Assembly (NCBI GenBank): GCA_024653225.1
Contig: JANLGA010000003.1
Coordinates: forward strand, 1-34,063
DNA length: 34,063 bases
Direction of reading: 5' to 3'
DNA from: Bacillota bacterium
Lineage (GTDB): Bacteria > Bacillota > Sulfobacillia > JABLXB01
In this document: piece after piece, positions 281 to 19,926 of the stretch
How the letters are laid out: each line of letters begins with the position of its first letter
Position numbering within the stretch: the first letter of the stretch is position 1
Notes under the pieces: model-generated
What the model was told of the DNA's origin: nothing
Databases searched by the model: none
Seen by the model: the letters and a program-made list of their open reading frames with translations, nothing else
Translations under genes and position numbers: made by a program

Positions 281-748
281 GTGACACTCGAGAAGTACCT
301 TCTACCGGGCCATATCGCCGTGAATGTCCAGGCGGATGACTGGGAGGAAGCGATCCGCGCGGTCGGCGGGTTGCTGGTGGACAGCGGCAGCGTGGAGCCC
401 CGCTTCGTGGACGCGATGGTGCGCGTCACCAAGGAGCTCGGCCCGTACGCGGTGATCGCGCCCGGCATAGCGTTGCCCCATGCCAGGCCCGAGGACGGGG
501 TGAAGAGGGGGTCACTGGCGGTACTGCGGCTCGCGAAGCCGGTTCCTTTCGGGAATAGCGTCAATGACCCTGTGGACGTCGTGATAGCATTGGCCCCGGT
601 TGACTCCTCGTCGCACATAGCCGCCCTGGCCGAAATCTGCGACTTTCTCAGGGACGAGGAGAACCTGGCGGCCCTTCGCTCGGCCGGAAGCTGCGACGAG
701 GTCGCACGCCTTCTCCTGTCGGGCGGAGCACCGGGCGAGAGGAGGTGA
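281..748 (+). CDS. PTS EIIA component, L-ascorbate family (UlaC/SgaA-like), set 1
   Basis: DDWEEAIRAVGGLLV...GPYAVIAPGIALPHARPEDGV has the EIIA-2 fold signature with the phosphorylatable His. GTG 281 gives a UlaC-like length of about 155 aa. The track ORF starts upstream at 239 in the same frame. Confidence 0.9.
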   Translation: MTLEKYLLPGHIAVNVQADDWEEAIRAVGGLLVDSGSVEPRFVDAMVRVTKELGPYAVIAPGIALPHARPEDGVKRGSLAVLRLAKPVPFGNSVNDPVDVVIALAPVDSSSHIAALAEICDFLRDEENLAALRSAGSCDEVARLLLSGGAPGERR

Positions 749-749
749 G

Positions 750-1094
750 GTGAACCGGCAACACCGGACTGCCACAGGCGGAGAGGAGGTGCGCAACATC
801 AGGAAGATAACCTGCGTCTGCGGCATGGGCTTGGGGAGCGGCCTCCTGATCAAAATGACGGTGCAGAAGGCGCTCGACAAGCTCGGTGTGAAAGGGATGG
901 CGGTAAATGTGGAAGTCGGGGATGTCAGCACGGCCCGGGCATTCGGGTCGGACCTGGTCTTGGCCTCACCCGAGTTCGGGCCTCGCCTGGAGGGAGGGCC
1001 TTCCCCCGTCGTGGTAGTCAACAACCTTCTGAGCGTTGACGAAGTCCAGACAAAGCTGGCGCCACACGTGAGAGATTGGTTTCCGAATCTCTGA
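750..1094 (+). CDS. PTS EIIB component, L-ascorbate family (UlaB/SgaB-like), set 1
   Basis: ITCVCGMGLGSGLLIK is the active-site Cys loop. GGAGG at 741-745 precedes GTG 750, which lies 1 nt after the EIIA stop. An alternative in-frame GTG is at 789. Confidence 0.85.
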   Translation: MNRQHRTATGGEEVRNIRKITCVCGMGLGSGLLIKMTVQKALDKLGVKGMAVNVEVGDVSTARAFGSDLVLASPEFGPRLEGGPSPVVVVNNLLSVDEVQTKLAPHVRDWFPNL

Positions 1095-1112
1095 CCTGGA
1101 GGAGGTGCCCAA

Positions 1113-2387
1113 GTGACAGGCGTTCTCAAGGTCCTGGTTGACATCCTGAGTGTTCCTTCCGTTCTGGTCGGGTTGATAGCGTTGCTCGGGCTGGTGGCGC
1201 AGAGGAAGCCGGTAGAGGTAGTCATAAGCGGTGCGCTGAAGACGACGTTGGGGTTCATCATACTGGGGTCGGGCGCCGGGGTCGTGATCAACGCGATCGT
1301 CCCGCTCGGCGACATACTGCAGCACGGTTTCAACATCAAGGGTGTGATAGCCGTCAACGAAGTGGTCATAGCCGTGGCCCAGAAGCAGTTCGGAACCGAA
1401 ATGGCCCTGACCATGGTCGCCGGATTCATCGCCAACATACTATTAGCGCTAGTGCTGCCGTGGAAATACATATTCCTGTCGGGCCATCACACCCTGTTCA
1501 TGGCGACCGTCGCCGTCGCGGTGCTCGGCGCCGGCGCCGGGTTCACCGGTATCCCCCTCATCCTCGCAGGCGCGCTGGTCATCGGGTTCTCGAGCATCTT
1601 CTTCCCGGCGATCTCGGCCCCCTTCATGAGGAAGATCACCGGGGGCGACGACTTCGTGATGGGCCACTGGGGCACGACCGGATACTGCCTGTCCGGTCTC
1701 ATCGGGAAGTACGTGGGCAACCCCGAGGACAGCACGGAGAACATCAAGCTCCCGTCGTGGGCGAACTTCATGCGCGAACCGCTGATCGCCATGGGGATCG
1801 TGATGTCCGTCGTCTACATCATCGCGGTACTCAAAGCCGGTCCCGAGTTCGTGGCGACCAAGAGCGGCGGCCAGTGGCCCCTGCTTTACGCCGTCATGCA
1901 GGGGTTGCTCTTTGCCGGCGGAATAGGCGTGATTCTCCTCGGCGTCCGCATGATCCTCGCGGAGATCGTGCCGGCGTTCAGGGGATTCGCCGAGAGGATA
2001 GTCCCCAAGTCCAAGCCGGCGCTCGACTGCCCGGTGGTTTTCCCGTACGCGCCCAACGCCCTTCTGATCGGGTACCTGTTCAGCACCTTGGGCGGCATCG
2101 TGGCGATGTTCGTTCAAGTCGCGGCGGGTTGGACGGTCATGGTGCCGAGCATGATAATCCACTTCTTCTGCGGCGGCTCGGCGGGCATATTCGGGAACGC
2201 GACGGGCGGGAAGAAAGGCGCGATGGTCGGGGCTTTCGCCCACGGCATCTTGGTGACGCTGCTTTCGGGGTTCCTGTACCCGTTGATGGGTTCCCTGGGG
2301 TTCGCGAACACGACTTTCGGGGACTCGGACTTCAGCATCATGGGTATCCTGCTGGGCTTCCTCGCGAAGCTCGCGGGCGGAAAGTAG
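1113..2387 (+). CDS. PTS EIIC permease, L-ascorbate family (UlaA/SgaT-like), set 1
   Basis: 424-aa polytopic protein. LKTTLGFIILGSGAG, GVRMILAEIVPAFRGF and ALDCPVVFPYAPNA resemble UlaA. GGAGGAGG RBS precedes GTG 1113. Confidence 0.93.
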   Translation: MTGVLKVLVDILSVPSVLVGLIALLGLVAQRKPVEVVISGALKTTLGFIILGSGAGVVINAIVPLGDILQHGFNIKGVIAVNEVVIAVAQKQFGTEMALTMVAGFIANILLALVLPWKYIFLSGHHTLFMATVAVAVLGAGAGFTGIPLILAGALVIGFSSIFFPAISAPFMRKITGGDDFVMGHWGTTGYCLSGLIGKYVGNPEDSTENIKLPSWANFMREPLIAMGIVMSVVYIIAVLKAGPEFVATKSGGQWPLLYAVMQGLLFAGGIGVILLGVRMILAEIVPAFRGFAERIVPKSKPALDCPVVFPYAPNALLIGYLFSTLGGIVAMFVQVAAGWTVMVPSMIIHFFCGGSAGIFGNATGGKKGAMVGAFAHGILVTLLSGFLYPLMGSLGFANTTFGDSDFSIMGILLGFLAKLAGGK

Positions 2388-2490
2388 CGGTCGACACGGC
2401 CGGGGCGGCCGCTTAGTTTCAATAGGTGGGGAGGGGACCGCGATCCTCTCCCCGTTCATCAGCATCAGGTCAGGCGCCTAAGCTGGACTC

Positions 2491-4014
2491 GTGGACCGGG
2501 AGGAGAGAAGCGACGGGCGCGGTCGCCGGTCGCGGAAGCGGATGCAGCCAAGGAAGCCGTCTATCGTCGTGGTAGGTGGGGGAGTAACGGGCGCGGCCAT
2601 AGCCAGGGAACTGACCAGGTACCGGGTGTCCGTGACAGTGGTCGAGAGAGAGGACGATCTCGCGCGCGGTGCCAGCGGGGCGTGCGGCGGAGTCATTCAT
2701 TCAGGGTTCGACCCCGCGCCCGGGACCCTGAAGGCCTCACTCAACGTCATCGGGAACTCCCTCTATCCCAAGTTGGCGGACGAGCTCGGCTTCGCGTACC
2801 GAAGGACGGGAACCCTGATCCTGGCTTTCGATCCGGACGGCGTGACGCGGCTGGAGGAGATAAGGGGGCGCGCCGCCCGGAACGGCGTCGAGTTGGAGAC
2901 CTGGACAAGGGACAGGGTGATCGCTCTCGAACCCAACGCGAATCCCGGCGTGCTCCAAGCGGTGTTCGCCCCCTCGGCCGGCGCCGTCTTCCCGCCGGAA
3001 GTGGTACTCGCACTGGCGCGGAGCGCCGCACTTAACGGGGCGAGATTCGAATTGGAGACCGAGGTGACGGGCATAGCCGTCAACCGCGGCGCCGTCGCCG
3101 GTGTGGAGACCACACGCGGCTTCATCCCCGCGGACATCGTCGTGAATGCCGCCGGCGTTGACGCGGCGGCGGTGGCGGCCGCCGCGGGAGACCACACCTT
3201 CAGCGTGAGGCCCCGAAAGGGCCAGCAGGTGATACTCGACAAGAGGTACGGCTCCATCGTCGCCCGGCACATCATGACGCTTCCCACGAGGATGGGCAAG
3301 GGAATCGGTGTCGCCCCCACCGTGGGCGGGAACATACACCTCGGATCCACGGCGGAGGACGGGGTGGAGCCCCACGACGTGACCACGACCTCAGCCGGAC
3401 TGGATTGGATATTCGAGAACGCGAAGAAGCTCGTGCCGTGCATTGAGCGCGATTGGATGATCGCCTCGTTCGCGGGCGTGAGGGCGATCTCCGACACCGA
3501 CGACTTCATCGTGAGGGAGAGTCCGGCGGTGGAGCGACTGTTCAACGTCGCGGGTATCCAGTCACCGGGGCTCTCCGCGGCACCGGCGATAGCCTCGCAC
3601 CTGGTGGGGGTGATGGTGAAGGCGGGTGTGCCACTGGAGCCCGAACCGGGTTTCAGGGCATTCCTCGACCCGCCGATCGTCACTTCGCGAATGAGCACCT
3701 CGGAATGGGCGCGCTTGGTCGCCGGGGATCCGTCCTTCGGCAGGATAGTCTGCCGCTGCGAGGGTGTCACGGAGGGCGAGATCGTCCGCGCAATCGAGGG
3801 CCCGCTCGGCGCGCGCAGCATAGAAGGGGTCAAGCGCAGGACGCGCGCCGGCATGGGGCGTTGCCAGGGGGGATTCTGCGGGCCGAGGGTCGCCGCGATC
3901 CTGTCGCGGAGGCTCGGCGTCCCCCTGTGGAAGGTGCGACGGCGGGGGGCGGGCTCCGAGCTCGGCGTCGGACCCGCGAAATGTTGCCTCCGCGGGGGTG
4001 TGGGCGCCCGATGA
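2491..4014 (+). CDS. GlpA-like FAD-dependent dehydrogenase with C-terminal BFD-like [2Fe-2S] domain
   Basis: IVVVGGGVTGAAIAREL is the dinucleotide fold. The C-terminal CRCEGVTEGEI...RAGMGRCQGGFCGPRV is a BFD-like Cys motif. An alternative in-frame ATG is at 2542. Confidence 0.9.
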   Translation: MDREERSDGRGRRSRKRMQPRKPSIVVVGGGVTGAAIARELTRYRVSVTVVEREDDLARGASGACGGVIHSGFDPAPGTLKASLNVIGNSLYPKLADELGFAYRRTGTLILAFDPDGVTRLEEIRGRAARNGVELETWTRDRVIALEPNANPGVLQAVFAPSAGAVFPPEVVLALARSAALNGARFELETEVTGIAVNRGAVAGVETTRGFIPADIVVNAAGVDAAAVAAAAGDHTFSVRPRKGQQVILDKRYGSIVARHIMTLPTRMGKGIGVAPTVGGNIHLGSTAEDGVEPHDVTTTSAGLDWIFENAKKLVPCIERDWMIASFAGVRAISDTDDFIVRESPAVERLFNVAGIQSPGLSAAPAIASHLVGVMVKAGVPLEPEPGFRAFLDPPIVTSRMSTSEWARLVAGDPSFGRIVCRCEGVTEGEIVRAIEGPLGARSIEGVKRRTRAGMGRCQGGFCGPRVAAILSRRLGVPLWKVRRRGAGSELGVGPAKCCLRGGVGAR

Positions 4015-5315
4015 GGCGCTCGAGGGCGGACGTGGTGGTGATCGGGGCGGGTCCGGCGGGACTCGCCGCGGCCTCCGCTGCGCGGGAGGTCGGGGCGCGG
4101 CGTGTGGTCGTGTTGGAGAGGGACGAGCGGGCCGGGGGAATCCTTCCGCAGTGCGTCCACACGGGGTTCGGCCTCCGGCGGTACGGTCGCGACCTGGCGG
4201 GGCCGGAGTATGCGGGGCTCGAGCTGGCCCGGGCGTTGAAGTCCGGCGCGGAAGTCAGGTTGGATTGTTGTGCGCTCAGGCTGGAACCGGGGGGCGGGGT
4301 CCGCCGGCCGAACGCGGTCGTCGCGGTTTCGCCGGCCGGCCTGGAGGAGATCCGGGCGCCGTCGGTGGTACTGGCGATGGGATGCAGGGAGCGGCCCGCG
4401 GGGTCGCTGGGGATACCGGGGAGCCGGGTGGCGGGCGTGATGACAGCCGGCACCGCCCAGCGGCTCATCAACATCGCGGGGATAATGCCCGGCAGGAAGG
4501 CCGTCGTCCTCGGGTCGGGGGACGTGGGGCTCATCGTCGCGCGGCGCTTGGCCCTGGAGGGGGCGACCGTCGCCGGTGTCTTCGAGGCGGTGGCGTGGGC
4601 GGGCGGCCTGCCGAGGAACGTCTCCCAGTGCTTGTGCGACTTCGGGATCCCGCTGTTCCTCGGCCATACGGTCGCCGAAGTGCACGGACGCGCCCGCTTG
4701 GAGGGCGTGACTGTGTGCGAGGTGGGGCGCGACATGAGACCCGTCCGCTCCACGGCGAGGGAGATAGCCTGCGACACGCTGCTCCTCTCGGTCGGGCTGA
4801 TCCCCGAGAACGAGCTGTCGCGGGAAGCCGGCGTGCCGATTTCCCCCGCGACCGGAGGGCCGTTGGTGGACGAGTGCGGGGCCTCACTTACGCCGGGGGT
4901 GTATGCGTGCGGGAACGCCGTGTACGTGCACGACTTCGTGGATGACGTGACGACCGAAGGGGAAATCGCCGGGGCGGCGGCGGCCCGGTTCGCGCTGGGC
5001 GAGAGCGGCGACAGGCGGCGAGACGGGTGCAAGATGTTCTTCAGGGAGGGGCGGAACGTTCGTTTCGTTTCCCCCGCATTCGTTCGCTTGGGCCGCGGGC
5101 GCGCGTGGCCCTCGCTCGCGCTGAGGTCCCGGCGCCCCGCCGCGAACGTGACCCCGGTGTTCAGGTGGGAGGGCGGACAATGCAGTGGCCCCGACCTGGA
5201 GTTCGTGAATCCCGGCGAAACGATTCGCTTGAATCTGCCGGTGGAGGTGCGGGGGCTGATCGAGAGCGATACCCGGCGGGACGTCACCGTCGAGGTCTCA
5301 TTGGAGTCGCAGTAG
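4011..5315 (+). CDS. NAD(P)/FAD-dependent (pyridine nucleotide-disulfide type) oxidoreductase, partner of the GlpA-like protein
   Basis: ADVVVIGAGPAGLAAA and AVVLGSGDVGLIVARRL are two Rossmann motifs. ATG 4011 overlaps the upstream stop (ATGA). The track ORF extension back to 3453 lies inside the previous gene and is rejected. Confidence 0.88.
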   Translation: MRRSRADVVVIGAGPAGLAAASAAREVGARRVVVLERDERAGGILPQCVHTGFGLRRYGRDLAGPEYAGLELARALKSGAEVRLDCCALRLEPGGGVRRPNAVVAVSPAGLEEIRAPSVVLAMGCRERPAGSLGIPGSRVAGVMTAGTAQRLINIAGIMPGRKAVVLGSGDVGLIVARRLALEGATVAGVFEAVAWAGGLPRNVSQCLCDFGIPLFLGHTVAEVHGRARLEGVTVCEVGRDMRPVRSTAREIACDTLLLSVGLIPENELSREAGVPISPATGGPLVDECGASLTPGVYACGNAVYVHDFVDDVTTEGEIAGAAAARFALGESGDRRRDGCKMFFREGRNVRFVSPAFVRLGRGRAWPSLALRSRRPAANVTPVFRWEGGQCSGPDLEFVNPGETIRLNLPVEVRGLIESDTRRDVTVEVSLESQ

Positions 5316-5319
5316 GCAG

Positions 5320-5715
5320 ATGACGGATCGGAAATGGGGGTTTCCTTTGGCGGACTTGGTGTGCGTGATCTGCCCCGGGGGCTGCCGGTTATCGGCGGGA
5401 GATGCGATCGGCGGGCGGGGGGTCGCGGGCGCCCGCTGTCCGCGAGGGATGGAGTTCGCCCGAAGCGAGATGGGGGCGCCCTCGCGGGTGTTCACCGGCA
5501 CCGTCCGCGTCTCGGGGGGAGCCTTGCCGGTAGTTCCCGTGAGGACGAACAAGCCGATCGGCCGCGGTCTACTGAGCGAATGTTCGAGGGTCCTGGCGGG
5601 TTTGACGGTATCGGCCCCCGTTGGCACTGGTCAGGTGTTGCTGCCCGATGTGCTCGGGACGGGCGCCGACGTCATCGCCACGTGCAGCGTAGAGGCCGCA
5701 CGTAGGGGGTGTTGA
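5320..5715 (+). CDS. DUF1667 domain protein, third member of the GlpA-like trio
   Basis: LVCVICPGGCRL...GARCPRGMEFA...TGTVRV...LPVVPVRTNKPI...DVIATC matches the DUF1667 pattern. It starts 5 nt after the previous stop. Confidence 0.85.
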   Translation: MTDRKWGFPLADLVCVICPGGCRLSAGDAIGGRGVAGARCPRGMEFARSEMGAPSRVFTGTVRVSGGALPVVPVRTNKPIGRGLLSECSRVLAGLTVSAPVGTGQVLLPDVLGTGADVIATCSVEAARRGC

Positions 5716-5718
5716 TTG

Positions 5719-6771
5719 ATGGAGCGGATGAGGGCGTTGCTGCTGAACGCGAGGGAGGACATGACGGCGGCCTCGGTCGAGAAGCCGGAACCCGCCGGCG
5801 GCGAGGTGCTGATGAGAGTGCTCGCCGCCGGGATCTGCGGGTCGGACGTGTCCAGGTACGGCAAGATAGGCCCGTACAAGCCCCCGTTGATCATGGGACA
5901 CGAAGTCTTCGGAAGGGTCGAGGGAAAGGGGGCCGGAGTGGAGGATGTCACCGTAGGCGAGACCGGCGTACTGGTTCCGCTCGTTCCGTGCGGGAAGTGC
6001 CCGAGCTGCCGGACGGGTAGGTACTCACTGTGCGACGACTACGACCTCTTCGGGGCGAGGAGGGACGGGGGCTTCGCCGGGTACATCCGCTGTCCGCGCG
6101 ACAACTTCTTCCGGGTTGAGGGAGATCTTCCCGCCGAGGAGGCGGTGTTCGTCGAGCCGGTCGCAACGGCCGCCCACGCCCTGATGAACGTGGGCGTCCG
6201 AGCCGGGGACACCGTCGCCTTTTTCGGCGGCGGCGTGATGGGCATGCTCGGGGCACAGGTCGCGGCGACCATGGGGGCATCCAGCGTATTCCTGGTGGAC
6301 ATTTCCGGGGACAAGATTCGCCTGGCGAAGAAGGTGACGGGGGCCGAGACGATTGACGCATCGCTGGTTGACCCCGTGAAACAGATCCTCGACATGACGG
6401 GTGGTATGGGAGTGGACGTGGCGGTGGAGGCCTCGGGCGCCACTGCCGCGCAGGAGCAGGTCCTTCTCGTTCCAAAGAAGGGCGGCCGAGTGGTGTACCT
6501 GGGCATATCGTACCTTCCACCGGTCATGCAGGCCCGGTCCTTCCAGAACATAGCCAGGCGCGAGCTGGTAGTGACGGGGTCGTGGATGTCGCACTCCCAT
6601 CCGTTTCCCGGAAGGGAATGGGCGTTCGCGTTGCAGGTAATCAAGGAAAGGCGGGTGAGAGTCGCCGAGATGGTCACGCACCGGATCTCCCTCGACGACG
6701 GACCCGCCATGTTTCGCGCCTTGAATGCCGGCTCAATCGTGGCGGGCAAGGTGCTGCTGTTTCCGGACTGA
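5719..6771 (+). CDS. Zn-dependent MDR alcohol/polyol(-phosphate) dehydrogenase 1
   Basis: AAGICGSDV and GHEVFG supply the catalytic Zn ligands. CGKCPSCRTGRYSLC is the structural Zn site and FFGGGVMG the Rossmann motif. The GGGGG RBS precedes ATG 5719. Confidence 0.9.
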   Translation: MERMRALLLNAREDMTAASVEKPEPAGGEVLMRVLAAGICGSDVSRYGKIGPYKPPLIMGHEVFGRVEGKGAGVEDVTVGETGVLVPLVPCGKCPSCRTGRYSLCDDYDLFGARRDGGFAGYIRCPRDNFFRVEGDLPAEEAVFVEPVATAAHALMNVGVRAGDTVAFFGGGVMGMLGAQVAATMGASSVFLVDISGDKIRLAKKVTGAETIDASLVDPVKQILDMTGGMGVDVAVEASGATAAQEQVLLVPKKGGRVVYLGISYLPPVMQARSFQNIARRELVVTGSWMSHSHPFPGREWAFALQVIKERRVRVAEMVTHRISLDDGPAMFRALNAGSIVAGKVLLFPD

Positions 6772-6784
6772 GGGGGGATGACGC

Positions 6785-7804: not shown

Positions 7805-7910
7805 CGGAAGTCGGTGCGATCGAGCGCCCGGCCATGGAGGAATTCCGGGGTTGTCTATTGAAGTAGTATCTCAAACGAATGGTTATGGGTGAACGTTTGT
7901 GCACGGACCG

Positions 7911-8987: not shown

Positions 8988-9065
8988 GCGCGATAGCAGG
9001 TGCGTTCGGCGGCCCGACGAGTCGGGCGCCGACGGGTACGCATCACAAAGAAGGGGGTTTGTTAA

Positions 9066-11171: not shown

Positions 11172-11182
11172 GAGACGGGGCC

Positions 11183-11491
11183 TTGCGGAGGGTATTCAGA
11201 GTCGAGAGGGAAGCAACCGGGACGCTTCTCTACCAACCCGATGAACTGCACGTGACCGAGCGGGGCGTGGCTTTGGTGCGCCCACACCTCTTCGGAGGGT
11301 CCGTGGAGGCACTCGGCGCCGGGGACATAGAGTCGGTGACCGCGACCCGGGGGCCCAGGTGGTGGGGCGTGTGCATCAGGTCCAGGTCGGGGCCCGGTAG
11401 GAGCCTGGTCATCAACGGCCTGGCCGAGAACGACGCGCTGGAGATAGTGAGCGCCGTGCGCCGGCTTCTCGGCGGTGCTGCTGGGGCTTAG
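11183..11491 (+). CDS. Small hypothetical protein, possibly a bacterial PH-like domain
   Basis: GGAG at 11171-11174 precedes TTG 11183, just after the upstream stop. The alternating beta-like pattern LHVTERGVALV...IESVTA...SLVINGL...ALEIVSAVRRLL suggests a PH-like fold. Function is not established. Confidence 0.5.
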   Translation: MRRVFRVEREATGTLLYQPDELHVTERGVALVRPHLFGGSVEALGAGDIESVTATRGPRWWGVCIRSRSGPGRSLVINGLAENDALEIVSAVRRLLGGAAGA

Positions 11492-11519
11492 GCTGCGTAG
11501 GGCTCGAATTGGAGGCGTG

Positions 11520-13974
11520 ATGGCTGTGACAGGAGAAGAGGCAATCGGCAGGCGGGAGAGGATCGCGCGCCTCAGGGACTGCATGCTGGAGCGCATGCCG
11601 GAAATATCGGCCGAGCGGGCGAGACTGCTGACCGAATCGTACAAGGAGACCGACGGGGCCCCGATGGTCATCCGCAGGGCCAAGGCGCTGGAGAAGATCC
11701 TGTCGAACATCAGCGTCCTCATACTCCCCGACGAGCTGATCGTGGGAAGCCAGGGGGCGCACCCCAGGACGGCGCAGATCTTTCCGGAGTACTGCGTCAG
11801 CTGGCTCAAGCGCGAGCTCGACGGCGACCCGTACAATTTCTGGGAGAGGCCGGGAGACAGGTTCTCCATCAGCCGGGAGACGATCCGCCAGTTGAAGGAG
11901 ATAATCCCGTACTGGGAGGGCAGGACGAACGAAGACAGGGTCATGTCTCTTCTCCCCGAGAGCGTGAAGAGGGCGCGCGAGATAGACGCCATTCACTGGG
12001 GTGGCCACGTGGCGGCCGGAGACGGCCACCTGATCGTGGACTACGAAGCGGTGATAAATGAGGGTCTGGACGGCATCCGCGCGCGGGCCGAGCGCGCGCT
12101 GGAAGGCCTCGACCTCACTGACCCGGAAGACCTGAGAAAACGACCGTTCCTCACGGCGGTCCCCATCGCCCTGAAGGCCGCCGTCGAGTTCGCCCGGCGC
12201 TACGCCGCCGAGGCGCGGCGCATGGCGGACCGCGAGATGGACCCGCGGAGGAAGAGGGAGCTCCAGGAGATCGCCTCGACCTGCGAGCGCGTGCCGGCTT
12301 CCCCCGCCACGACGTTCCGCGAGGCGCTGCAGTCGGTGTGGTTCACCCAGCTCATCCTCCAGATCGAGAGCAATGGTCACTCGGTTTCCCTCGGGCGTTT
12401 CGACCAATACATGTATCCGTTCTATAGGCGGGACGTCGAGCGGGGGATCCTGACCTACGAGCGGGCGCTCGAACTGGTCCAGTGCTTCTACGTCAAGCTG
12501 TTCTCAGTCGTGAAGCTGAGGGGCTGGAACCACACCCGGTATGTCGCGGGGCACCCGGTGTTCCAGAACATCACGATAGGCGGCCAAACCGCGAGAGGCG
12601 ACGACGCGGTCAACGAGGTGACGTACATCTGCCTCGACGCGATGGCCGAAACTAAGCTCACACAGCCGTCTCTGTCCGCGAGGTGGTGGCCCGGGTCGCC
12701 GGCAAGGTACAGGAAGCGGTGCGCCGAGGTGATACGCCTGGGGCTCGGGCAGCCCGCGCTGTTCAACGACGAGGTGATCGTACCGTCGCTCGTGGCGAGG
12801 GGAGTGACCCTGGAGGACGCCTCGAACTACGCCGCGGTGGGCTGCGTCGAGATAGGCGTGCCGGCCAAGTGGGGTTACTGCCCGAGCGGTCGCTGTCATT
12901 TCAACATGGGCAAGGTGCTCGAACTGGCGCTCAACAACGGGAGGGATCGCCGGACCGGGATACAGCTCTGCCCGGGCAACGGTGACCTGGCCTCGTTCAA
13001 GAGTTTCGACGAAGTGATGGAGGCGTGGCGGATTCAGGCCGAGTACTACCTGAAGCAACACATCATTTTCGACAACCTTAACGAGCTGACCAAGGAGGAG
13101 CTCGTGGCCGACGTGTTCTGCTCGGCGCTTCTCCAGGACTGCATCGGGCGCGGCAAGACGATTCACCAGGGGGGCGCGGTGTACGACTTCATTGCCGGCC
13201 AGCAGTGCGGCACGGCCAACGTGGCCGATTCCCTGGCCGCGATCAAGAAACTCGTGTTCGAGGAGCGGGTGATTACCGGGACCGAGCTCGCGCGGGCGCT
13301 TGAGACGAATTTCGAGGGGCCGGACGGCGAGCGCGTCCGGCAACTGTTGCTGAACAAGGCGCCGAAGTTCGGTAACGACGATGACTATGTTGACCTGATA
13401 GCGCGCGACGCGTTCGGGTTCTACGTCGAGAAGGTCAACACGTACAAGACGGTCAAGTACGGCCGCGGGCCGACGGGTGGCATGTGGCAGGCCTCGACTT
13501 CCACGGTCTCCGCGAACGTTCCGTCGGGGCTCGCGGTGGGGGCCACCCCGGACGGGAGGAAGGCGGGGGATCCACTTGCCGAGGGATGTTCCCCGGCCCA
13601 GGGCCGGGGAACATCCCTCGGCCCAGGGTCGCGACCGGAGCGGCCCGCCGGCCGCGGTGAGGTCCGTCGCCAAGCTCCCCAACATAATGGTCTCGGGGGG
13701 CCAGCTCCTGAACCAGAAGCTCTCCCCTTCGTTGCTTTCGACCGACGAAGGACTGGAGAAAATGATCGACGTCGTGAGGGGTTTCTTCGGACTCAAGGGT
13801 TGGCACATCCAATTCAACGTGGTCTCCGCGGACACGCTGAGGGATGCGATGAACAACCCGTCGAAGTATAGGGACCTGATCGTTAGGGTGGCGGGGTACA
13901 GCGCCAGGTTCGTTGACCTGGACCCTAAGGTGCAGAGAGACATCATTTCCCGGACCGAACAAGCGGGATTCTGA
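11520..13974 (+). pseudogene. Glycyl radical enzyme (PFL2/glycerol dehydratase-like family), interrupted by a 25-nt insertion that shifts the frame
   Basis: The N-terminal part is in the frame of ORF 11475-13871, including the Cys loop AAVGCVEIG (Cys codon 12843-12845) and GATPDGRKAGDPLAEGCSPAQG. The C-terminal part is in the frame of ORF 13477-13974: GRDRSGPPAAVRSVAKL...HIQFNVVS...LIVRVAGYSARF (Gly codon 13894-13896). As encoded, the first ORF runs out of frame to 13871. Confidence 0.92.
13581..13628. repeat. Quasi-palindromic insertion inside the GRE gene: 19-bp perfect hairpin arms plus a 9-bp direct repeat
   Basis: GAGGGATGTTCCCCGGCCC at 13581-13599 and GGGCCGGGGAACATCCCTC at 13601-13619 are exact reverse complements around A13600. 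GGCCCAGGG occurs at 13595-13603 and again at 13620-13628, 25 nt apart. Confidence 0.9.
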
Positions 13975-13983
13975 GGAGGACTC

Positions 13984-14457
13984 GTGGATCTACTCGACGT
14001 ACTCACTGAGGAAAGCATAGCACTAGACGTGGAAGCGGACGACTGGCGCGATTCGATTAGACAAGTGGGCCGAGTGCTGGTGGAAACCGGGGCGATTGAG
14101 CCGCGCTACATTGACGCGATGATCCGCACGGTGGAACAGATAGGTCCGTACCTGGTGCTGGCCCCGGGCGTGGCGATGAACCACGCCCGCCCGGAGGACG
14201 GCGTGAACAGGGTGTGCCTCGGGCTCGTCCGGCTGCGCACCCCCGTCAACTACGGGAGCGCCCACAATGACCCGGTGGATATCGTGATAGCCCTCGGGGC
14301 GGTCGACCACGAGGCCCATCTGAAGCTGCTCAGGGACCTGGCGTGCTTCCTGTCGGACGAAGAGAACATCCGACGGGTCAGGCGGGCAAGCACCAAGCAG
14401 GAGGTGATCGCGGCGTTCAGGCGGTGCGCGGAGCGCGCCGCCGGCGGCCAGTCGTGA
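13984..14457 (+). CDS. PTS EIIA component, L-ascorbate family, set 2
   Basis: DDWRDSIRQVGRVLV...GPYLVLAPGVAMNHARPEDGV is a paralogue of 281-748. GAGGAGG RBS precedes GTG 13984. Confidence 0.9.
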   Translation: MDLLDVLTEESIALDVEADDWRDSIRQVGRVLVETGAIEPRYIDAMIRTVEQIGPYLVLAPGVAMNHARPEDGVNRVCLGLVRLRTPVNYGSAHNDPVDIVIALGAVDHEAHLKLLRDLACFLSDEENIRRVRRASTKQEVIAAFRRCAERAAGGQS

Positions 14458-14514
14458 CCCTGCACCGAGAAGTCCACAATATGTCATACATCCGTCCCGG
14501 GAGGGAAGCCAAGA

Positions 14515-14811
14515 ATGCCGAAGGAGCTTCGAATCGCCACGATTTGTGGAATGGGGTTCGGTACAAGCCTGATTCTCAAGTACGGCGTGGACGATGTCCT
14601 GGCGGAGGCCGGGATAACGGGTTGCACAGTGGAGGCGTGCGACCTCGGTTCCGCGAAGGCGTCGCACACCGACCTGATTGTGGCCGCGGACGACATGAGG
14701 GCGTTGCTGGACGGAGCGAAGCAGCGGGTGGTCTACCTTCACAGCATGACGAACAAGAAGGAAATGAGGGAGAAGGTGCTTCCCGTCGTTAGAGAGCTCC
14801 TCGGTTCGTGA
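14515..14811 (+). CDS. PTS EIIB component, L-ascorbate family, set 2
   Basis: RIATICGMGFGTSLILK is the Cys loop. GGGAGGGAAG RBS precedes ATG 14515. Confidence 0.88.
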   Translation: MPKELRIATICGMGFGTSLILKYGVDDVLAEAGITGCTVEACDLGSAKASHTDLIVAADDMRALLDGAKQRVVYLHSMTNKKEMREKVLPVVRELLGS

Positions 14812-14845
14812 CGGCCGGATCGTCGAGAAGTTAGGGGGCCTGGAG

Positions 14846-15760
14846 GTGGCGTTCAGCCGGGTACAAGGCGTCGTATTCAATATCCAGCGCTATTCGATCC
14901 ATGACGGCCCCGGCATCAGGACACTCGTCTTCGTCAAAGGCTGTCCGCTGCGGTGCGGTTGGTGCTGCAATCCGGAGTCGCAGCGGCGGGAACCGGAACT
15001 GGGATACATGCGGTCCCGATGCATCGGCTGCCGCCGATGCATTGATTCTTGTGGTCGGGGGGCGCTGGTGTTCGAGGGCGACGGTTTGCGCATCTTGCGC
15101 GAACGGTGTGACGCGTGCGGCAGGTGCGCCGTCGCGTGTGCGGCGGGGGCGCTGGAGGTGTTCGGGCGCACGGTGACCGTGGAGGAAGTCATGGACGAGG
15201 TGCGCCGGGACACGCCTTTTTACGGTAGCGGGGGAGGACTGACCGTCTCCGGGGGCGAGCCGTTCTCGCAGCCCGATTTCACGGCAGCGCTGCTGGCCGC
15301 CGCGAAGGAAGAGGGATTGACGACGGCGGTCGAGACGTCCGGCTGCGCGCCGTGGGAGGCGATATCGCCCGCGTTGGGGTCGCTCGGCCTCGTGCTGTAC
15401 GACTTGAAGCACGCCGACCCGGACAGGCACCGGGAGGGCACCGGAGCGTCGAACGAGCTGATCCTGGAGAACCTGGGGAAGCTCGCGGCGGGCGGCCGCG
15501 CGAGGATCAGGCTCAGGGTCCCGCTCATCCCACGGTTCAACGCCGACCCGAACAGCCTGGCGGCGATGGCGAGGGTCGCCAGGGACATGGGAATGACCGA
15601 GGTTGACCTCCTGCCTTACCACCTGCTGGGAACCTCGAAGTACAAGTCCCTGGACCGTGAGTATCCTTGGGCGGGAGTCGAGCGCCTGACCGACCGCGAG
15701 ATCGAGGAGATGAGGCGTCCGTTCGAGTCGGCGGGATTGGGAACGCGGATAGGCGGGTGA
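14846..15760 (+). CDS. Glycyl radical enzyme activating protein (radical SAM) with an extra ferredoxin-like cluster insert
   Basis: SIHDGPGIRTLVFVKGCPLRCGWCCNPES contains the CX3CX2C motif. CIGCRRCIDSC and CDACGRCAVAC are auxiliary 4Fe-4S motifs typical of dehydratase-type GRE activases. Confidence 0.93.
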   Translation: MAFSRVQGVVFNIQRYSIHDGPGIRTLVFVKGCPLRCGWCCNPESQRREPELGYMRSRCIGCRRCIDSCGRGALVFEGDGLRILRERCDACGRCAVACAAGALEVFGRTVTVEEVMDEVRRDTPFYGSGGGLTVSGGEPFSQPDFTAALLAAAKEEGLTTAVETSGCAPWEAISPALGSLGLVLYDLKHADPDRHREGTGASNELILENLGKLAAGGRARIRLRVPLIPRFNADPNSLAAMARVARDMGMTEVDLLPYHLLGTSKYKSLDREYPWAGVERLTDREIEEMRRPFESAGLGTRIGG

Positions 15761-15795
15761 GCGGCCCGCTCCTTCACGTCAGGGAGGGATTGGCG

Positions 15796-16491
15796 TTGTT
15801 GACTAGGGCCGAGTTGAGAAAGATGATCGATCACACGGCGCTCAAGCCGTGGGTGGGCAGGGACGAGGTGCTCAAACTGTGCGGTGAGGCCAGGGAGAGG
15901 GACTTCGCCACCGTGTTCATCAACAGCTGCTGGGTCCCGCTGGCGGTGCGGGAATTGCGGGGCTCGCCCGTCAAGGTGGGCACCACCATCGGGTTTCCCC
16001 TCGGGGCCTGCATGACTTCCGTAAAGGTGTTTGAGGCGGTGGAGGCGGTCAGGGCGGGCGCCGGCGAGGTTGATATGGTGATGAACATCGGCGCCCTCAA
16101 GGACGGCGACTCGGAGTCGGCGCTGAACGACATGAGGGCGGTCGTCGAGGCCGCAAGGGCCGAGGCCGCCCGGGCGGGCGTTGAAGTAGTGGTGAAGGTA
16201 ATAATCGAGACCTGCTACCTCGACGACGCCCACAAGGTGTTGGCGTCCAAACTTGTCGTGCAGGCGGGCGCCGATTTCGTCAAGACCTCGACGGGTTTCG
16301 GCTCCGGGGGAGCGACGGTGGAAGACGTGCGCCTGATATCATCGGTCGTGGCGGGCAGGGCCCGCGTCAAGGCCGCGGGCGGCATCCAGACGCTTTCCCA
16401 GGCGAAGGCGCTCATCGAGGCGGGGGCGTCGAGGCTGGGAACCAGCAGGGGAGTGGCGCTCGACGACGAAATGGGGGCGACCACGGCGTGA
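15796..16491 (+). CDS. deoC: Deoxyribose-phosphate aldolase (canonical DeoC)
   Basis: IDHTALKP, GEVDMVMN, KVIIETC, ADFVKTSTGF and RVKAAGGI show all catalytic residues. AGGGAGGGA RBS precedes TTG 15796. Other in-frame starts include GTG 15757, and the track ORF starts at 15667 inside the activase gene. Confidence 0.92.
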   Translation: MLTRAELRKMIDHTALKPWVGRDEVLKLCGEARERDFATVFINSCWVPLAVRELRGSPVKVGTTIGFPLGACMTSVKVFEAVEAVRAGAGEVDMVMNIGALKDGDSESALNDMRAVVEAARAEAARAGVEVVVKVIIETCYLDDAHKVLASKLVVQAGADFVKTSTGFGSGGATVEDVRLISSVVAGRARVKAAGGIQTLSQAKALIEAGASRLGTSRGVALDDEMGATTA

Positions 16492-17339
16492 CTGGGCTCT
16501 CGGCGGGCGACCTGGAACGACTGAAGACGATCGCGGCGAGGATACGGCGCAAGTCCCTAGTGTTGATTTTCAACAGGGGATCCGGTCACCCCGGGGGTTC
16601 GCTCTCGTGCGCCGACATCCTGGCGGTCCTCTACGGGGGATACATGTACGTGGACCCGGCTCGACCCGATATGAGAGGAAGGGACCATTTCGTCCTGTGC
16701 AAGGGGCACGCCTCGATGGCGCTGTACGCCGCCTTGTCGGAGGCGGGATTCCTTCCTGATGACATCACTTCACTGCCCCCGGACCACCAGTATCTGCAAG
16801 GCCATCCCGACCGGTGGAAGACCCCCGGGGTCGAGATGTCCACCGGTTCCCTCGGCCAGGGATTGTCGGTCGCCCTGGGTATGGCGCTCGCGGCCCGGCT
16901 CGACGGCTGCGGCGGTCGCGTTTTCGCGCTCCTGGGGGACGGCGAGCTCGATGAGGGTCAGGTCTGGGAGGCGGCCATGGCCGCAGCGAACTACCGGGTT
17001 GACAACCTTGTCGCGATCGTTGACAGGAACGGGCTGCAGATCATGGGGAGGACCGGTGAAGTCATGGAGACCGAGCCGCTCTCCGCGAAGTGGTCGGCGT
17101 TCGGATGGAACGTCGTGGAAGTAGACGGAAACGACCCGGGAGCGGTGTGGGAGGCGCTCGACCTCGCGAGGAGCGTGACGGGGAGGCCCTCCGTCCTTCT
17201 GGCGAAAACGGTGAAGGGCAAGGGTGTGTCCTTCATGGAGGGGCGACCCGAGTGGCACGCGAAGGCCATATCCGCTTCGGAGCTGGAGAGGGCGCTGGCG
17301 GAACTCGAATCACGGGAGAAAGGGGGCGGATGCGAATGA
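16488..17339 (+). CDS. Transketolase, N-terminal (TPP-binding) subunit
   Basis: GSGHPGGSLSCADILAVLY, FVLCKGHASMALYA and LGDGELDEGQVWEA. The GTGA start overlaps the deoC stop. Confidence 0.93.
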   Translation: MTGLSAGDLERLKTIAARIRRKSLVLIFNRGSGHPGGSLSCADILAVLYGGYMYVDPARPDMRGRDHFVLCKGHASMALYAALSEAGFLPDDITSLPPDHQYLQGHPDRWKTPGVEMSTGSLGQGLSVALGMALAARLDGCGGRVFALLGDGELDEGQVWEAAMAAANYRVDNLVAIVDRNGLQIMGRTGEVMETEPLSAKWSAFGWNVVEVDGNDPGAVWEALDLARSVTGRPSVLLAKTVKGKGVSFMEGRPEWHAKAISASELERALAELESREKGGGCE

Positions 17340-18301
17340 CGAAGACAGCCGCTCCCCGCGACATCGTGGGCAAGACACTCATCGAACTGGGCCGGGAATA
17401 CCCCGAGCTCGTCGTGCTCGATGCGGACGTGGGTTCCTCGACGCGGTCGGCCGAGTTCGCCGCGGCATTCCCCTCCCGCTTCTTTCAGATGGGTATCGCC
17501 GAAGCCAACATGGCCGGAGTGGCCGCGGGGCTCGCCGCGTCGGGCAAGATTCCCGTGATGGTCGGGTTCGCCGTGTTCGTGACCGCCAAAGCATTCGAAC
17601 AGGTCAGGCAGTCGGTAGCGTGGGCGAACCTGAACGTCAAGATAATCGGCTCACATGCCGGACTCACAGTCGGACTCGATGGTGCGTCTCACCAGGCAGT
17701 CGAGGACGTGGCCATCATGAGGAGCCTCCCGAACATGTGCGTGTTGGACCCGGCGGACGCGGCCGAGACGGAAAGCGCCATCCGGGCGGCGGTCGTGCAC
17801 CGGGGCCCGGTGTACGTGAGGGTCGGGCGGCTGAAGTCGCCCGTGATATACGAAACACCCCCGCGGCTGACCCCCGGAAAGGCCGTCGTGCTGCGGGAAG
17901 GGAAGGACGCGACGATCATCGCCTGCGGCATCATGGTGGCCCGGGCCCTTGAAGCAGCGTCCCTCCTGGATGGGGACGGCATTTCTGTCGGGGTCGTGGA
18001 CATGGCGTCGGTCAAGCCGCTCGACGGAGACTGCGTGGTGGATTGCGCGGGCCGGACGGGCGCCATAGTGACGGCGGAAAACGCTTCGATCGTGGGCGGG
18101 CTGGGCAGCGCCGTGGCCGAGGTGCTGGCCGAGAAGGTTCCGGTTCCCATGGAGCGAATTGGAATACCGGATGTCTTCGGCACGTCGTCGGACCCGGAAA
18201 GGCTCATGGAACGGTACGGAATGACCGCGGAACACGTGCGGTCCGCCGTCACCCGGGTAATGGCGCGGAAGCGTGCTCAGAGGGGAAGGGACAATGGGTA
18301 G
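17336..18301 (+). CDS. Transketolase, C-terminal (pyrimidine-binding) subunit
   Basis: FFQMGIAEANMAGVAAGLA and GSHAGLTVGLDGASHQAVEDVAIMR. The ATGA start overlaps the N-terminal subunit stop. The track extension back to 17090 is rejected. Confidence 0.93.
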   Translation: MTKTAAPRDIVGKTLIELGREYPELVVLDADVGSSTRSAEFAAAFPSRFFQMGIAEANMAGVAAGLAASGKIPVMVGFAVFVTAKAFEQVRQSVAWANLNVKIIGSHAGLTVGLDGASHQAVEDVAIMRSLPNMCVLDPADAAETESAIRAAVVHRGPVYVRVGRLKSPVIYETPPRLTPGKAVVLREGKDATIIACGIMVARALEAASLLDGDGISVGVVDMASVKPLDGDCVVDCAGRTGAIVTAENASIVGGLGSAVAEVLAEKVPVPMERIGIPDVFGTSSDPERLMERYGMTAEHVRSAVTRVMARKRAQRGRDNG

Positions 18302-19229
18302 CAGGGACGCCGGACTCCTGGCGAAGATCGCTGCGTGGTATTACGAGGACGGCCTGACGCAAGAGGAAATAGCCCGCAGGAGCAGGGTATCCAGGCCGAG
18401 CGTTTCGAGGTTGTTGTCCCAGGCGCGAGAGATGGGAATAGTACAGGTCAAGGTGGCGTATCCGCTTTCCCAGGCAAAGGAGCTCGAACGCAGGCTTGAG
18501 AAGACCTTCGGCCTGAAGGAGGCCATAGTCGCCGACACATCCGGCTCGGGGTCGTTGCCCCTGGTACGCACGCTCGGAGCGGCCGCCGCAGAGTACCTCG
18601 AACGCGTCCTGGACGAGAACGACGTTCTCGGCGTATCCTGGGGGAACACGCTGTACCACGTGATCCAGTCGCTGGAACCGCGGCCCATGGAGCGCCTCAC
18701 GATCGTGCAGCTATGCGGCGGACTGGCCCCGGTGTGGGAGGCGACGGACTCGGCGGACCTAGTGCGGAAGATGGCCGCCGTGTACGGCGCCAGGGCCTAC
18801 CTCTTGCAGGGACCGCTGCTGCTGGGGTCGGAAGAGGAGTACAGGTACCTGGCGTCCAATCCCGCGATCGCCCTCACGCTCGACAAGATGAAGGACGTCA
18901 ACGTGGCGGTGGTGGGCATCGGGGCGCTCGAGGACTCGGTGTTCATGAGGAACAACATGCTCTCCCCGGAACAGGTTGAAGCCCTGCGTGCGACCGGCGC
19001 TGTCGGCGACATCTGCTCCCGGTTCATCGGACCGGACGGCCGGGAGGTGGACGCGACCTTCATTGGGCCGATGCTGGCGATACGGATGGAGGAACTGTGC
19101 CGCGTGGAGCATGTGGTGGCGGTGGCGGGCGGCCCGCGCAAGATCGCCGCACTGAGGGCCGCCTTGCTCACTGGGGCGATTGACGTTGTGATCACCGACA
19201 CGGATACAGCGGCCGGCATAGTAGCCTGA
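18294..19229 (+). CDS. SorC/DeoR(Bsu)-type sugar-binding transcriptional regulator
   Basis: N-terminal HTH LTQEEIARRSRVSRPSVSRLL followed by a sugar-phosphate-binding domain (VLGVSWGNT, NVAVVGIG, VAGGPRK). ATG 18294 overlaps the transketolase stop by 8 nt. Confidence 0.88.
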   Translation: MGSRDAGLLAKIAAWYYEDGLTQEEIARRSRVSRPSVSRLLSQAREMGIVQVKVAYPLSQAKELERRLEKTFGLKEAIVADTSGSGSLPLVRTLGAAAAEYLERVLDENDVLGVSWGNTLYHVIQSLEPRPMERLTIVQLCGGLAPVWEATDSADLVRKMAAVYGARAYLLQGPLLLGSEEEYRYLASNPAIALTLDKMKDVNVAVVGIGALEDSVFMRNNMLSPEQVEALRATGAVGDICSRFIGPDGREVDATFIGPMLAIRMEELCRVEHVVAVAGGPRKIAALRAALLTGAIDVVITDTDTAAGIVA

Positions 19230-19272
19230 GGGAGACCCGGCGAGGGCCGGCCCGCGTGGAGGAGTGTCCGAT

Positions 19273-19926
19273 ATGCCCGAGAGAGCGTCGAGAGTGAGTC
19301 CCGCGGTCGCGCTCGGCCGCGAGGTAGTGGAGAGGGAAGCGCGGGCGCTTCTGGACATGGCGGAGAAGATCGGACCCGAGTTCGAGCGGGCGGTCACCCT
19401 GTTGAGTGAATGCGAGGGCAAGGTGGTCGTCACCGGGATGGGGAAATCGGGCCTGATCTGCAGGAAGATCGCCGCGACACTCTCGAGCCTGGGCACCCCG
19501 GCCCTTTTCTTGCACGCCGGCGATGCGCTGCACGGCGACTCGGGCGTCCTGGCGGAGGAAGACGTGGTATTGGCGGTCTCTCACAGCGGGGAGACCGCGG
19601 AATTGTTGGCGCTCCTGCCCCTCATACGGAGTGCCGGCTCCAAGATCATAAGCATTTCGGGAAACCTCGACTGTTCACTCGCGCGCTCCGCGGATGTCGC
19701 CCTGTGCACGGGGGTGGGCACGGAAGCGGACCCGAGGGGTTTGGCGCCCACCAGCAGCAGCACCGCGACGCTCGCCCTCGGCGACGCGCTGGCCCTGTGC
19801 GTGGCGGAGGCGGACGGATTCACGGCCGACGACTTCCACGCCTTTCACCCGGGCGGGTCGCTCGGGAAGGCGTTGTCGCGTGGCCGCGATAACGCGGGAC
19901 GACCCGGCGCCGGGGCCGGGTCGTGA
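19273..19926 (+). CDS. SIS-domain sugar-phosphate isomerase, KpsF/GutQ-like but without the CBS pair
   Basis: VVVTGMGKSGLICRKIAATLSSLGTPA, SHSGET, LAPTSSSTATLALGDAL and FHPGGSLGK. The protein ends where KpsF CBS domains would begin. An alternative in-frame GTG is at 19264. Confidence 0.88.
   Translation: MPERASRVSPAVALGREVVEREARALLDMAEKIGPEFERAVTLLSECEGKVVVTGMGKSGLICRKIAATLSSLGTPALFLHAGDALHGDSGVLAEEDVVLAVSHSGETAELLALLPLIRSAGSKIISISGNLDCSLARSADVALCTGVGTEADPRGLAPTSSSTATLALGDALALCVAEADGFTADDFHAFHPGGSLGKALSRGRDNAGRPGAGAGS

Follow-up and report, generated by a model that had tools for sequence, protein, structure and literature searches.

A glycyl radical enzyme gene among phosphotransferase, DeoC and transketolase genes in a spore-forming Bacillota: a candidate route for sugar alcohol phosphates

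Gene content and organization of the cluster

The window, a 34,063-nt stretch of contig JANLGA010000003.1 from an uncultured Bacillota bacterium (assembly GCA_024653225.1; G+C of about 65%), begins with a cluster that places an oxygen-sensitive glycyl radical enzyme (GRE) among genes for the phosphotransferase system (PTS), a deoxyribose-phosphate aldolase (DeoC, or DERA) and a split transketolase (TK). A sequence-only reading of the window had proposed that the PTS delivers a polyol phosphate, that the GRE dehydrates it, and that DeoC cleaves the product. That interpretation is reasonable and partly supported, but the locus behind it is a single one, interrupted and not conserved. According to the listing of open reading frames (ORFs) and scans with Pfam and NCBIfam, every credible gene in positions 239-19926 lies on the + strand, comprising 20 clear genes and one probable ORF of 102 aa, and no credible - strand gene interrupts them; the 21 co-directional genes counted earlier are therefore present. 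No obvious gene lies upstream of the first one in positions 1-238, and 22 nt separate position 1 from the end of the source contig, JGI 3300038743 Ga0417229_000397. The features of the cluster are as follows.

239-748, +, PTS EIIA of set 1 (EIIA1); PF00359 PTS_EIIA_2, E=2.8e-32; likely start GTG at 281
750-1094, +, PTS EIIB of set 1 (EIIB1); PF02302 PTS_IIB, E=6.4e-9
1113-2387, +, PTS EIIC of the ascorbate/galactitol family, set 1 (EIIC1); PF03611 EIIC-GAT, E=2.5e-121; NF006919, 510 bits against a cut-off of 380
2491-4014, +, GlpA-like FAD oxidoreductase with a BFD [2Fe-2S] domain; DAO and Fer2_BFD
4011-5315, +, pyridine-nucleotide-disulfide-type oxidoreductase; Pyr_redox_2, E=2.7e-26
5320-5715, +, DUF1667 protein, third of the GlpA-like trio; PF07892, E=2.9e-26
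5716-6771, +, Zn-dependent MDR dehydrogenase (MDR1); ADH_N and ADH_zinc_N
6785-7804, +, Gfo/Idh/MocA oxidoreductase; PF01408, E=4.9e-23
7899-8987, +, second Zn-dependent MDR dehydrogenase (MDR2), by Pfam/NCBIfam; 30% identical to MDR1
9066-10346, +, PTS EIIC of the ascorbate/galactitol family, set 2 (EIIC2); EIIC-GAT, E=2.4e-114
10473-11171, +, DeoC-family paralog without the catalytic residues; TIGR00126, 138 bits against a cut-off of 117
11183-11491, +, probable 102-aa gene; G+C at third codon positions (GC3) of 0.81 in frame; called as a gene by JGI
11520-13974, +, GRE, interrupted; PFL-like PF02901 and Gly_radical PF01228; 809 aa after removal of the insertion
about 13602-13626, +, 25-nt insertion that frameshifts the GRE; inverted copy of the 21 nt just before it, plus CCAG
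13984-14457, +, PTS EIIA of set 2 (EIIA2); PTS_EIIA_2, E=3e-32
14515-14811, +, PTS EIIB of set 2 (EIIB2); PTS_IIB, E=1.3e-6
14846-15760, +, GRE activating enzyme (activase); Radical_SAM and Fer4 families; TIGR02494, 344 bits
15757-16491, +, canonical DeoC/DERA; TIGR00126, 244 bits against a cut-off of 117
16488-17339, +, transketolase N-terminal subunit (TK-N); Transketolase_N, E=5.7e-49
17336-18301, +, transketolase C-terminal subunit (TK-C); Transket_pyr and Transketolase_C
18294-19229, +, SorC-family regulator; Sugar-bind, E=2.9e-62, and HTH matches
19264-19926, +, single-domain SIS phosphosugar isomerase of KdsD/GutQ type; KdsD residues 15-202 matched, 209 bits

The core operon runs GRE, EIIA2, EIIB2, activase, DeoC, TK-N, TK-C, SorC and SIS, with EIIC2 just upstream. 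Its successive gaps are 9, 57, 34, -4, -4, -4, -8 and 34 nt, and EIIA2 starts 9 nt past the GRE stop codon. The overlaps are GTGA at 15757 (activase stop and deoC start), GTGA at 16488 (deoC and TK-N), ATGA at 17336 (TK-N and TK-C) and 8 nt, ATGGGTAG, at 18294-18301 (TK-C and SorC); another ATGA, at 4011, joins the GlpA-like and Pyr_redox genes. All four overlaps reported from the letters (4011, 16488, 17336 and 18294-18301) were found again, that at 15757 being an addition to them, and the order described for the genes from the activase through deoC to SIS also stands. Upstream of this run, the gaps reach 103, 94, 78, 126 and 348 nt, and the wider ones (78-348 nt) likely split the region into several transcription units, only the stretch from GRE to SIS being tightly packed. 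Promoter-like and terminator-like matches in positions 1-20000 were no commoner than in shuffled sequence, and no Rfam family reached its gathering score on either strand of the whole window.

The cluster carries two complete ascorbate/galactitol-type PTS sets (EIIA_2, IIB and EIIC-GAT), with 52% identity between EIIA1 and EIIA2 and 42% between EIIC1 and EIIC2; in the second set, EIIA2 and EIIB2 sit between the GRE and its activase. The nearest foreign relatives of EIIC2 are about 50% identical and are mostly enterobacterial 'ascorbate' EIICs, whose E. coli counterparts occupy a bare LacI-EIIA-EIIB-EIIC unit and are uninformative for EIIC2. A 2088-bp NCBI contig from another sample encodes an EIIC (P0252) that clusters with EIIC2 at 90% identity. 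A close relative of the window's organism thus exists elsewhere, and the 2088-bp contig is too short to show the GRE-DeoC operon.

Pfam recovered the two MDR genes and the single Gfo/Idh/MocA gene that had been placed upstream. MDR1 is nearest to galactitol-1-phosphate 5-dehydrogenase, scoring 222 bits against the NF007642 cut-off of 550 and 211 bits against structure 4A2C, and the best matches of MDR2 are IolM and Tdh, both under their cut-offs. The best NCBIfam match of the GlpA-like protein is type 2 glycerol-3-phosphate oxidase, at 255 bits and under the 460-bit cut-off. The 102-aa ORF directly 5′ of the GRE has no Pfam match.

The activase contains the motif CPLRCGWC and two extra ferredoxin-type motifs (CIGCRRCIDSC and CDACGRCAVAC), together with Fer4 matches, in agreement with the additional clusters first attributed to it. 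DeoC keeps the catalytic Asp, the Schiff-base Lys and the second Lys (EVDMV, FVKTSTG and VKAAGG) and is translationally coupled to both the activase and transketolase by its 4-nt overlaps. In the upstream DeoC paralog, by comparison, His, Gln and Arg replace these residues, which are kept in all five homologs compared with it in alignments that included DERA structures. The paralog has a coding-like GC3 of 0.81, and no close homolog was found for it among 5.8 billion proteins (best, 37%); it may bind sugar phosphates without catalysis or be a pseudo-enzyme of recent origin. The SIS protein has no CBS domains, unlike full KdsD/GutQ proteins with their SIS and tandem CBS domains, and its best solved structures are the single-domain phosphosugar isomerases 5UQI, 2XHZ, 3FXA and 3ETN.

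Directly past the cluster, two tandem divergent paralogs of the outer spore coat protein CotE are encoded at 19988-21123 (-), so the host is an endospore-forming member of the Bacillota despite its 65% G+C. Overall, the cluster is best read as an island for the catabolism of sugar alcohols imported by PTS, in a high-GC, spore-forming Bacillota host.

Relatives, integrity and neighborhoods of the glycyl radical enzyme

The GRE matches PF02901 with 737 bits and PF01228 with 110 bits. It has the Cys loop VGCVEIG (C442, E444) and the glycine motif RVAGYSA, and its catalytic Cys column is invariant across 20 homologs. The GCVE loop was read correctly at the outset; the Cys-Cys pair of pyruvate formate-lyase (PFL) is absent, and assignment as a PFL was rejected on that ground. 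Against solved structures, the GRE scores 739-683 bits for ECL_02896/YbiW, glycerol dehydratase (GD) and 1,2-propanediol dehydratase (PD), and 542-482 bits for PflD, CutC, HypD, isethionate lyase and HpsG. Assignment as a choline, hydroxyproline or isethionate lyase was rejected on bit scores (490-541, compared to 683-739 for YbiW, GD and PD), and the phylogenetic check proposed with the sequence-only reading therefore did not place the GRE with these enzymes of unrelated substrate.

The identities of the GRE to its characterized relatives are closely spaced: 44.5% to YbiW, 44.6% to Clostridium butyricum GD, 45.2% to the PD of structure 9RCO and 40.4% to PflD. Its best relatives are 50-56% identical in a search among 5.8 billion proteins, and searches of genome contigs with a 20-sequence GRE profile and of metagenome contigs with the GRE gave relatives of at most 56% among the matches listed. 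The neighbor-joining tree of 52 sequences separates what the identities do not: the GRE groups with YbiW, without GD/PD, in 100 of 100 bootstrap replicates, and with GD/PD in none. Within the YbiW clade, it is a lone deep branch whose sister is the pair P0009 and P0074 (64 of 100 replicates). The KWGY and SANVP loops are common to the GRE and the YbiW clade, and the K-T-E-G-W-H-D447 loop of GD/PD is replaced by KWGYCPSGR. The CxE Cys loop, the equivalent of His164 and the GHS loop are common to the GRE and GD/PD; in particular, GCVE and GDGH170 of the GRE align with C433, E435 and H164 of GD. An Arg unique to the GRE (Arg458) lies beside the position of GD Asp447. An AlphaFold model (pLDDT 86, pTM 0.91) matches PD, GD and YbiW with Foldseek TM scores of 0.93-0.95; the predicted fold confirms a GRE, does not separate these three enzymes and leaves the function undecided.

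The label 'dehydratase/lyase-type', given at first to the Cys loop of the GRE, therefore holds only in part. The GCVE loop is as described, and the dehydratase type is not established, because the GRE lies outside the GD/PD clade and lacks the EGWHD motif. These same data bear on another possibility, in which the GRE would dehydrate glycerol or 1,2-propanediol, a free small diol that arises at a later point of the pathway being its substrate. The identity to GD (44.6%) and to 9RCO (about 45%), the CxE motif and the His164 equivalent are what such an enzyme would show, but the absence of any replicate grouping it with GD/PD, the missing EGWHD loop with its Asp447, and the lack in Pfam scans of a nearby gene for 1,3-propanediol/propanol dehydrogenase, aldehyde dehydrogenase or a microcompartment shell protein make this explanation very improbable.

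The GRE reading frame is interrupted by a shift near 13600, and the JGI gene call accordingly consists of 720 and 105 aa. At this point, GCCGAGGGATGTTCCCCGGCCC is followed, after 1 base, by its own exact reverse complement (arms 13578-13599 and 13601-13622; 22 nt, 100% complementary). Removal of exactly 25 nt (13602-13626) yields a colinear 809-aa GRE without further stops, which aligns gap-free with 19 homologs through SP..G.D..GP.A..SV.KL up to RVAGYSA; the insertion boundaries are uncertain by a few bases owing to a flanking CCCAGG repeat. Judged by these repeats, the lesion looks like a template-switch (quasi-palindrome) inverted duplication, which arose either by very recent mutation or as an artefact of assembly. 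Both halves of the gene have a GC3 of 0.81-0.87, all catalytic motifs are kept, and the GRE deviates at 28 of 249 clade-conserved positions (those kept in at least 85% of the clade), compared to 24 of 232 for E. coli YbiW. A long-decayed pseudogene was rejected on these grounds: coding-type GC3, no other stop and a normal level of conserved residues. A 50.8-kb NCBI contig encodes EIIC2, activase, transketolase and DeoC-paralog proteins identical to those of the window and contributes no GRE protein, which fits a pseudogene annotation there too. Owing to the broken frame, the sequenced population may lack an active radical branch.

The genomic neighborhoods of related enzymes were compared across 167 loci among the matches listed, encoding GRE relatives 40-56% identical in species-representative genomes and metagenomes; flanks of up to 10 kb per side were searched with the window proteins and seed proteins. 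All counts below refer to these listed loci.

FSA/TAL-family aldolase in the flanks: 55 of 167
ROK, FGGY or PfkB sugar kinase: 53 of 167
Ribose-type ABC binding protein: 19 of 167
Split transketolase: about 6 of 167
Ascorbate-type PTS: 1 of 167 (locus L059)
DeoC: 0 of 167

The YbiW-type clade is overall one that deals with sugars or sugar phosphates, because its loci are rich in sugar transporters, sugar kinases and aldolases, and the combination of a GRE with an aldolase is a common design. Wherever an aldolase was detected beside the listed clade GREs, it was of the FSA/TAL family. The link between GRE and DeoC is unique to the window among the listed loci and is not conserved; the co-occurrence of GRE, DeoC and ascorbate-type PTS in relatives, to which the sequence-only reading had looked for confirmation and whose absence it had named as a ground for refutation, was thus not borne out there, with counts of 0 for DeoC and 1 for the PTS.

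Several of these loci have architectures of their own. In L059 (22-14960, a metagenome-assembled genome, or MAG, of Erysipelotrichaceae), a ula-like module of lactamase-fold protein, EIIA, EIIC, FSA, EIIB, DeoR, a sugar-phosphate isomerase/epimerase-like TIM barrel, class II aldolase and split TK is followed by DeoR-GRE-FSA-activase. L011 (7139-18154, a Bacillota MAG) encodes FGGY kinase, Fe-ADH, GRE, activase, SDR, TK-N, TK-C and Fe-ADH with a divergent SorC, and is a second design combining GRE with split transketolase, without any aldolase. L001 (6002-13438), L003 (308-13438) and L004 (6476-14840) each contain two or three paralogous GREs, which in L001 and L003 lie beside PfkB/FGGY/ROK kinases, ribulose-phosphate 3-epimerase and ribose-type ABC transporters, and in L004 are without kinases; these three loci look like multi-substrate radical sugar clusters.

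The singleton status of the pairing, together with the lesion, raises the question of whether the cluster is a mosaic of ordinary polyol or pentitol PTS modules, into which GRE and activase were inserted and are now decaying, so that the adjacency of GRE and DeoC has no functional meaning. The frameshift, a neighboring DeoC paralog without any of its catalytic residues, the several intergenic gaps of 78-348 nt, and the absence of the GRE-DeoC pairing from the 167 listed loci are all in keeping with such a history; moreover, ascorbate-type PTS and split TK occur together without functional dependence on a GRE, as in the ula-like module of L059, which is separate from its GRE-FSA-activase genes. 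However, the GRE retains every motif, its conserved-residue level and its GC3 in both halves, and it has a single lesion without further stops, so any inactivation would be very recent or an artefact. In addition, PTS set 2 is divided around GRE and activase, an arrangement also seen in the frw/pflDC operon of E. coli, which is functional, and the activase overlaps deoC. A mosaic of this kind is accordingly an unlikely account of the cluster.

A putative pathway from alditol phosphates to acetaldehyde

Our preferred reading of the gene content, to which we assign a probability of roughly 0.4, is that a PTS-derived alditol phosphate would undergo radical dehydration to a 2-deoxy-aldose phosphate, which DeoC would split into acetaldehyde and an aldose phosphate. 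In particular, the ascorbate/galactitol-type PTS would deliver an alditol phosphate with a terminal vicinal diol at its unphosphorylated end. The YbiW-clade GRE would then take a hydrogen from C1, the free terminal carbinol, and eliminate the C2 hydroxyl, giving an omega-phospho-2-deoxy-aldose. DERA needs a 2-deoxy-aldose phosphate as its substrate, and the coupling of deoC to the activase and TK genes suggests that DeoC would cleave this one. Its co-product would depend on the starting compound: a pentitol would give glyceraldehyde-3-phosphate, a hexitol erythrose-4-phosphate, and a heptitol a pentose-5-phosphate. The split TK and the SIS isomerase would move the aldose phosphate into the pentose-phosphate pool, and erythrose-4-phosphate or a pentose-5-phosphate as the product would give a role to both transketolase and the arabinose-5-phosphate-isomerase-like SIS protein. 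The MDR, Gfo and GlpA-like dehydrogenases may form a parallel oxidative branch from alditol phosphate to ketose phosphate. The radical branch would make no NADH and would balance redox with acetaldehyde as the electron sink, much as glycerol fermentation balances redox between its two branches. A more specific version, held only tentatively, is that the GRE is an alditol-phosphate 1,2-dehydratase converting, for example, ribitol-5-phosphate or D-arabitol-5-phosphate to 2-deoxyribose-5-phosphate, which DeoC then cleaves.

Several observations favor this pathway. The GRE belongs to the YbiW clade (100 of 100 replicates), whose one characterized enzyme, YbiW, has a PTS-derived cyclic polyol phosphate as its substrate; at eight positions strongly conserved in that clade, it carries the GD residue instead. 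The interleaving of PTS, GRE, activase and PTS genes beside an aldolase gene is that of E. coli frw/pflDC/fsaB, and MDR1, closest to galactitol-1-phosphate 5-dehydrogenase, is in keeping with the known Firmicute design of PTS plus MDR.

A second group of observations weighs against it. YbiW cleaves the C1-O bond after hydrogen abstraction at C2, and the same chemistry on an open-chain alditol phosphate would give a 1-deoxy-ketose, which is not a DeoC substrate. The GRE is outside the GD/PD dehydratase clade and without EGWHD, and two residues invariant in its own clade are changed, Arg (YbiW R453) to Cys454 and Lys (K550) to His549. Its gene is frameshifted in the assembly, and the 50.8-kb twin contig supplies no GRE protein. 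The pairing with DeoC (0 of 167 listed loci) and with ascorbate-type PTS (1 of 167) does not recur, and no true ortholog is available for a conservation test, the best relative among the matches listed being 56% identical. Further, the cluster shows no evident aldehyde or alcohol dehydrogenase that would be dedicated to acetaldehyde, and if DeoC released glyceraldehyde-3-phosphate, TK and SIS would be left unneeded.

Some of this evidence can instead be read as pointing to a C-O lyase (isomerase) like YbiW and PflD, which would open an anhydro-alditol phosphate or remove the C1 hydroxyl of an alditol phosphate, yielding a 1-deoxy-ketose phosphate that is handled by the split TK or by an aldolase elsewhere; DeoC would then serve another substrate of the regulon, such as deoxyribose-5-phosphate. 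The chemistry of YbiW is the only one shown for the clade, the GRE lies in that clade in every replicate and has its KWGY and SANVP loops, and split TK is found beside clade GREs without DeoC at about 6 of the 167 listed loci (for example, L011). On the other hand, the window has no FSA/TAL aldolase, compared to 55 of the 167 listed loci, and the overlaps of deoC with the activase and TK-N genes argue for one pathway. A substrate of the YbiW type is also improbable, given that the Arg and Lys invariant in the clade are missing from the GRE. Cleavage of 1-deoxy-ketoses is not known for transketolase, which counts further against this alternative, and we consider it improbable.

If the alditol-phosphate dehydration pathway is correct, the cluster would encode a radical route to a 2-deoxy sugar phosphate that does not depend on ribonucleotide reductase, a new reaction class in the YbiW clade, and an NADH-free, redox-balancing branch of anaerobic polyol fermentation. 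YbiW and PflD are the only characterized sugar-phosphate GREs, and both feed an FSA-type aldolase; a clade GRE tied to DeoC hints that the bond is cleaved by another chemistry and that sugar alcohols, which plants, algae, lichens and fungi contain in abundance, may be broken down by a new anaerobic route. The clade is large, nearly always located beside sugar transporters, kinases and aldolases, and essentially uncharacterized, and the window offers a concrete candidate from it. Its value is limited by being a singleton metagenome locus whose GRE gene needs repair before expression.

Two further proteins of the window appear unrelated to the cluster: a large CHASE4-HAMP-GGDEF-HD (HD_5) signaling protein is encoded at 25783-28389 (-) and a 4HB-MCP chemoreceptor at 30117-32018 (+). 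Pfam gave no match for four ORFs of 133-511 aa (28676-30211, -; 32019-32594, +; 33015-33563, -; 33597-34001, -), and the reality of the 511-aa ORF is uncertain, as it runs into the start of the chemoreceptor ORF, which lies on the opposite strand.

Comparison with known systems

B12-independent GD and PD resemble the window GRE in the CxE loop, the His164 equivalent, the GHS loop, about 45% identity and a TM score of 0.93. The proposed conversion of a terminal vicinal diol to an aldehyde, with its redox-balancing role, would also mirror glycerol fermentation. In contrast, the window GRE falls in another clade (0 of 100 replicates with GD/PD) without the EGWHD/Asp447 loop, its presumed substrate is phosphorylated and PTS-derived, and the window contains neither a microcompartment nor a dedicated aldehyde reductase. 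Six C-O eliminases are described in a 2026 review of glycyl radical enzymes, and none of them acts on a sugar phosphate or alditol phosphate (PMC13450708). The statement in the sequence-only reading that no characterized pathway has this composition is in line with that review, which contains no polyol-phosphate dehydratase (PMC13450708), and our literature search found no report linking a GRE with deoxyribose, DeoC or polyol phosphates.

Firmicutes have an established route from pentitols to pentose phosphates that combines a PTS with one or two MDR alditol-phosphate dehydrogenases (PMC6685057). The pentitol routes of Bacillus methanolicus (atlABCD), Listeria monocytogenes and Enterococcus avium share with the window a PTS of the galactitol/ascorbate class and MDR enzymes. 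They are, however, purely NAD-dependent and have no GRE, activase or DeoC, and the window's MDR proteins score well under the equivalog cut-offs.

In SPU microcompartments, a catabolic DERA acting on a sugar phosphate yields acetaldehyde beside a pentose-phosphate isomerase (PMC11585597). The likeness to the window is DERA as the acetaldehyde-generating step next to a sugar-phosphate isomerase gene. The SPU systems differ in using nucleoside-derived deoxyribose-5-phosphate, shell proteins and an aldehyde dehydrogenase and in having no GRE, whereas the window has neither shell proteins nor an aldehyde dehydrogenase.

The anhydroglycolysis of E. coli is a further system for comparison. Its locus is frwC-frwB-pflD-pflC-frwD, adjoining fsaB and gldA, so the sequence-only reading was right to place pflD-pflC within the frw PTS operon. 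YbiW and PflD convert 1,5-anhydroglucitol-6-phosphate and 1,5-anhydromannitol-6-phosphate to 1-deoxy-fructose-6-phosphate, which is then cleaved by an aldolase (PMC13450708). In both E. coli and the window, the genes for a PFL2-type GRE and its activase are set among PTS genes, and the succession of a PTS-derived polyol-like phosphate, radical C-O cleavage and splitting of the product by an aldolase is proposed likewise here. The differences lie in the components: the aldolase of the window is DeoC, a class I DERA, instead of FSA; its PTS is of the ascorbate/galactitol type instead of the fructose type; its GRE, whose gene is interrupted, does not keep YbiW R453 and K550; and the window adds a split TK, the SIS isomerase and alditol-phosphate-type dehydrogenases. 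Overall, the window is a variant of the GRE-plus-aldolase 'anhydroglycolysis' design on PTS-derived sugar phosphates, in which the pairing with DeoC is what is new.

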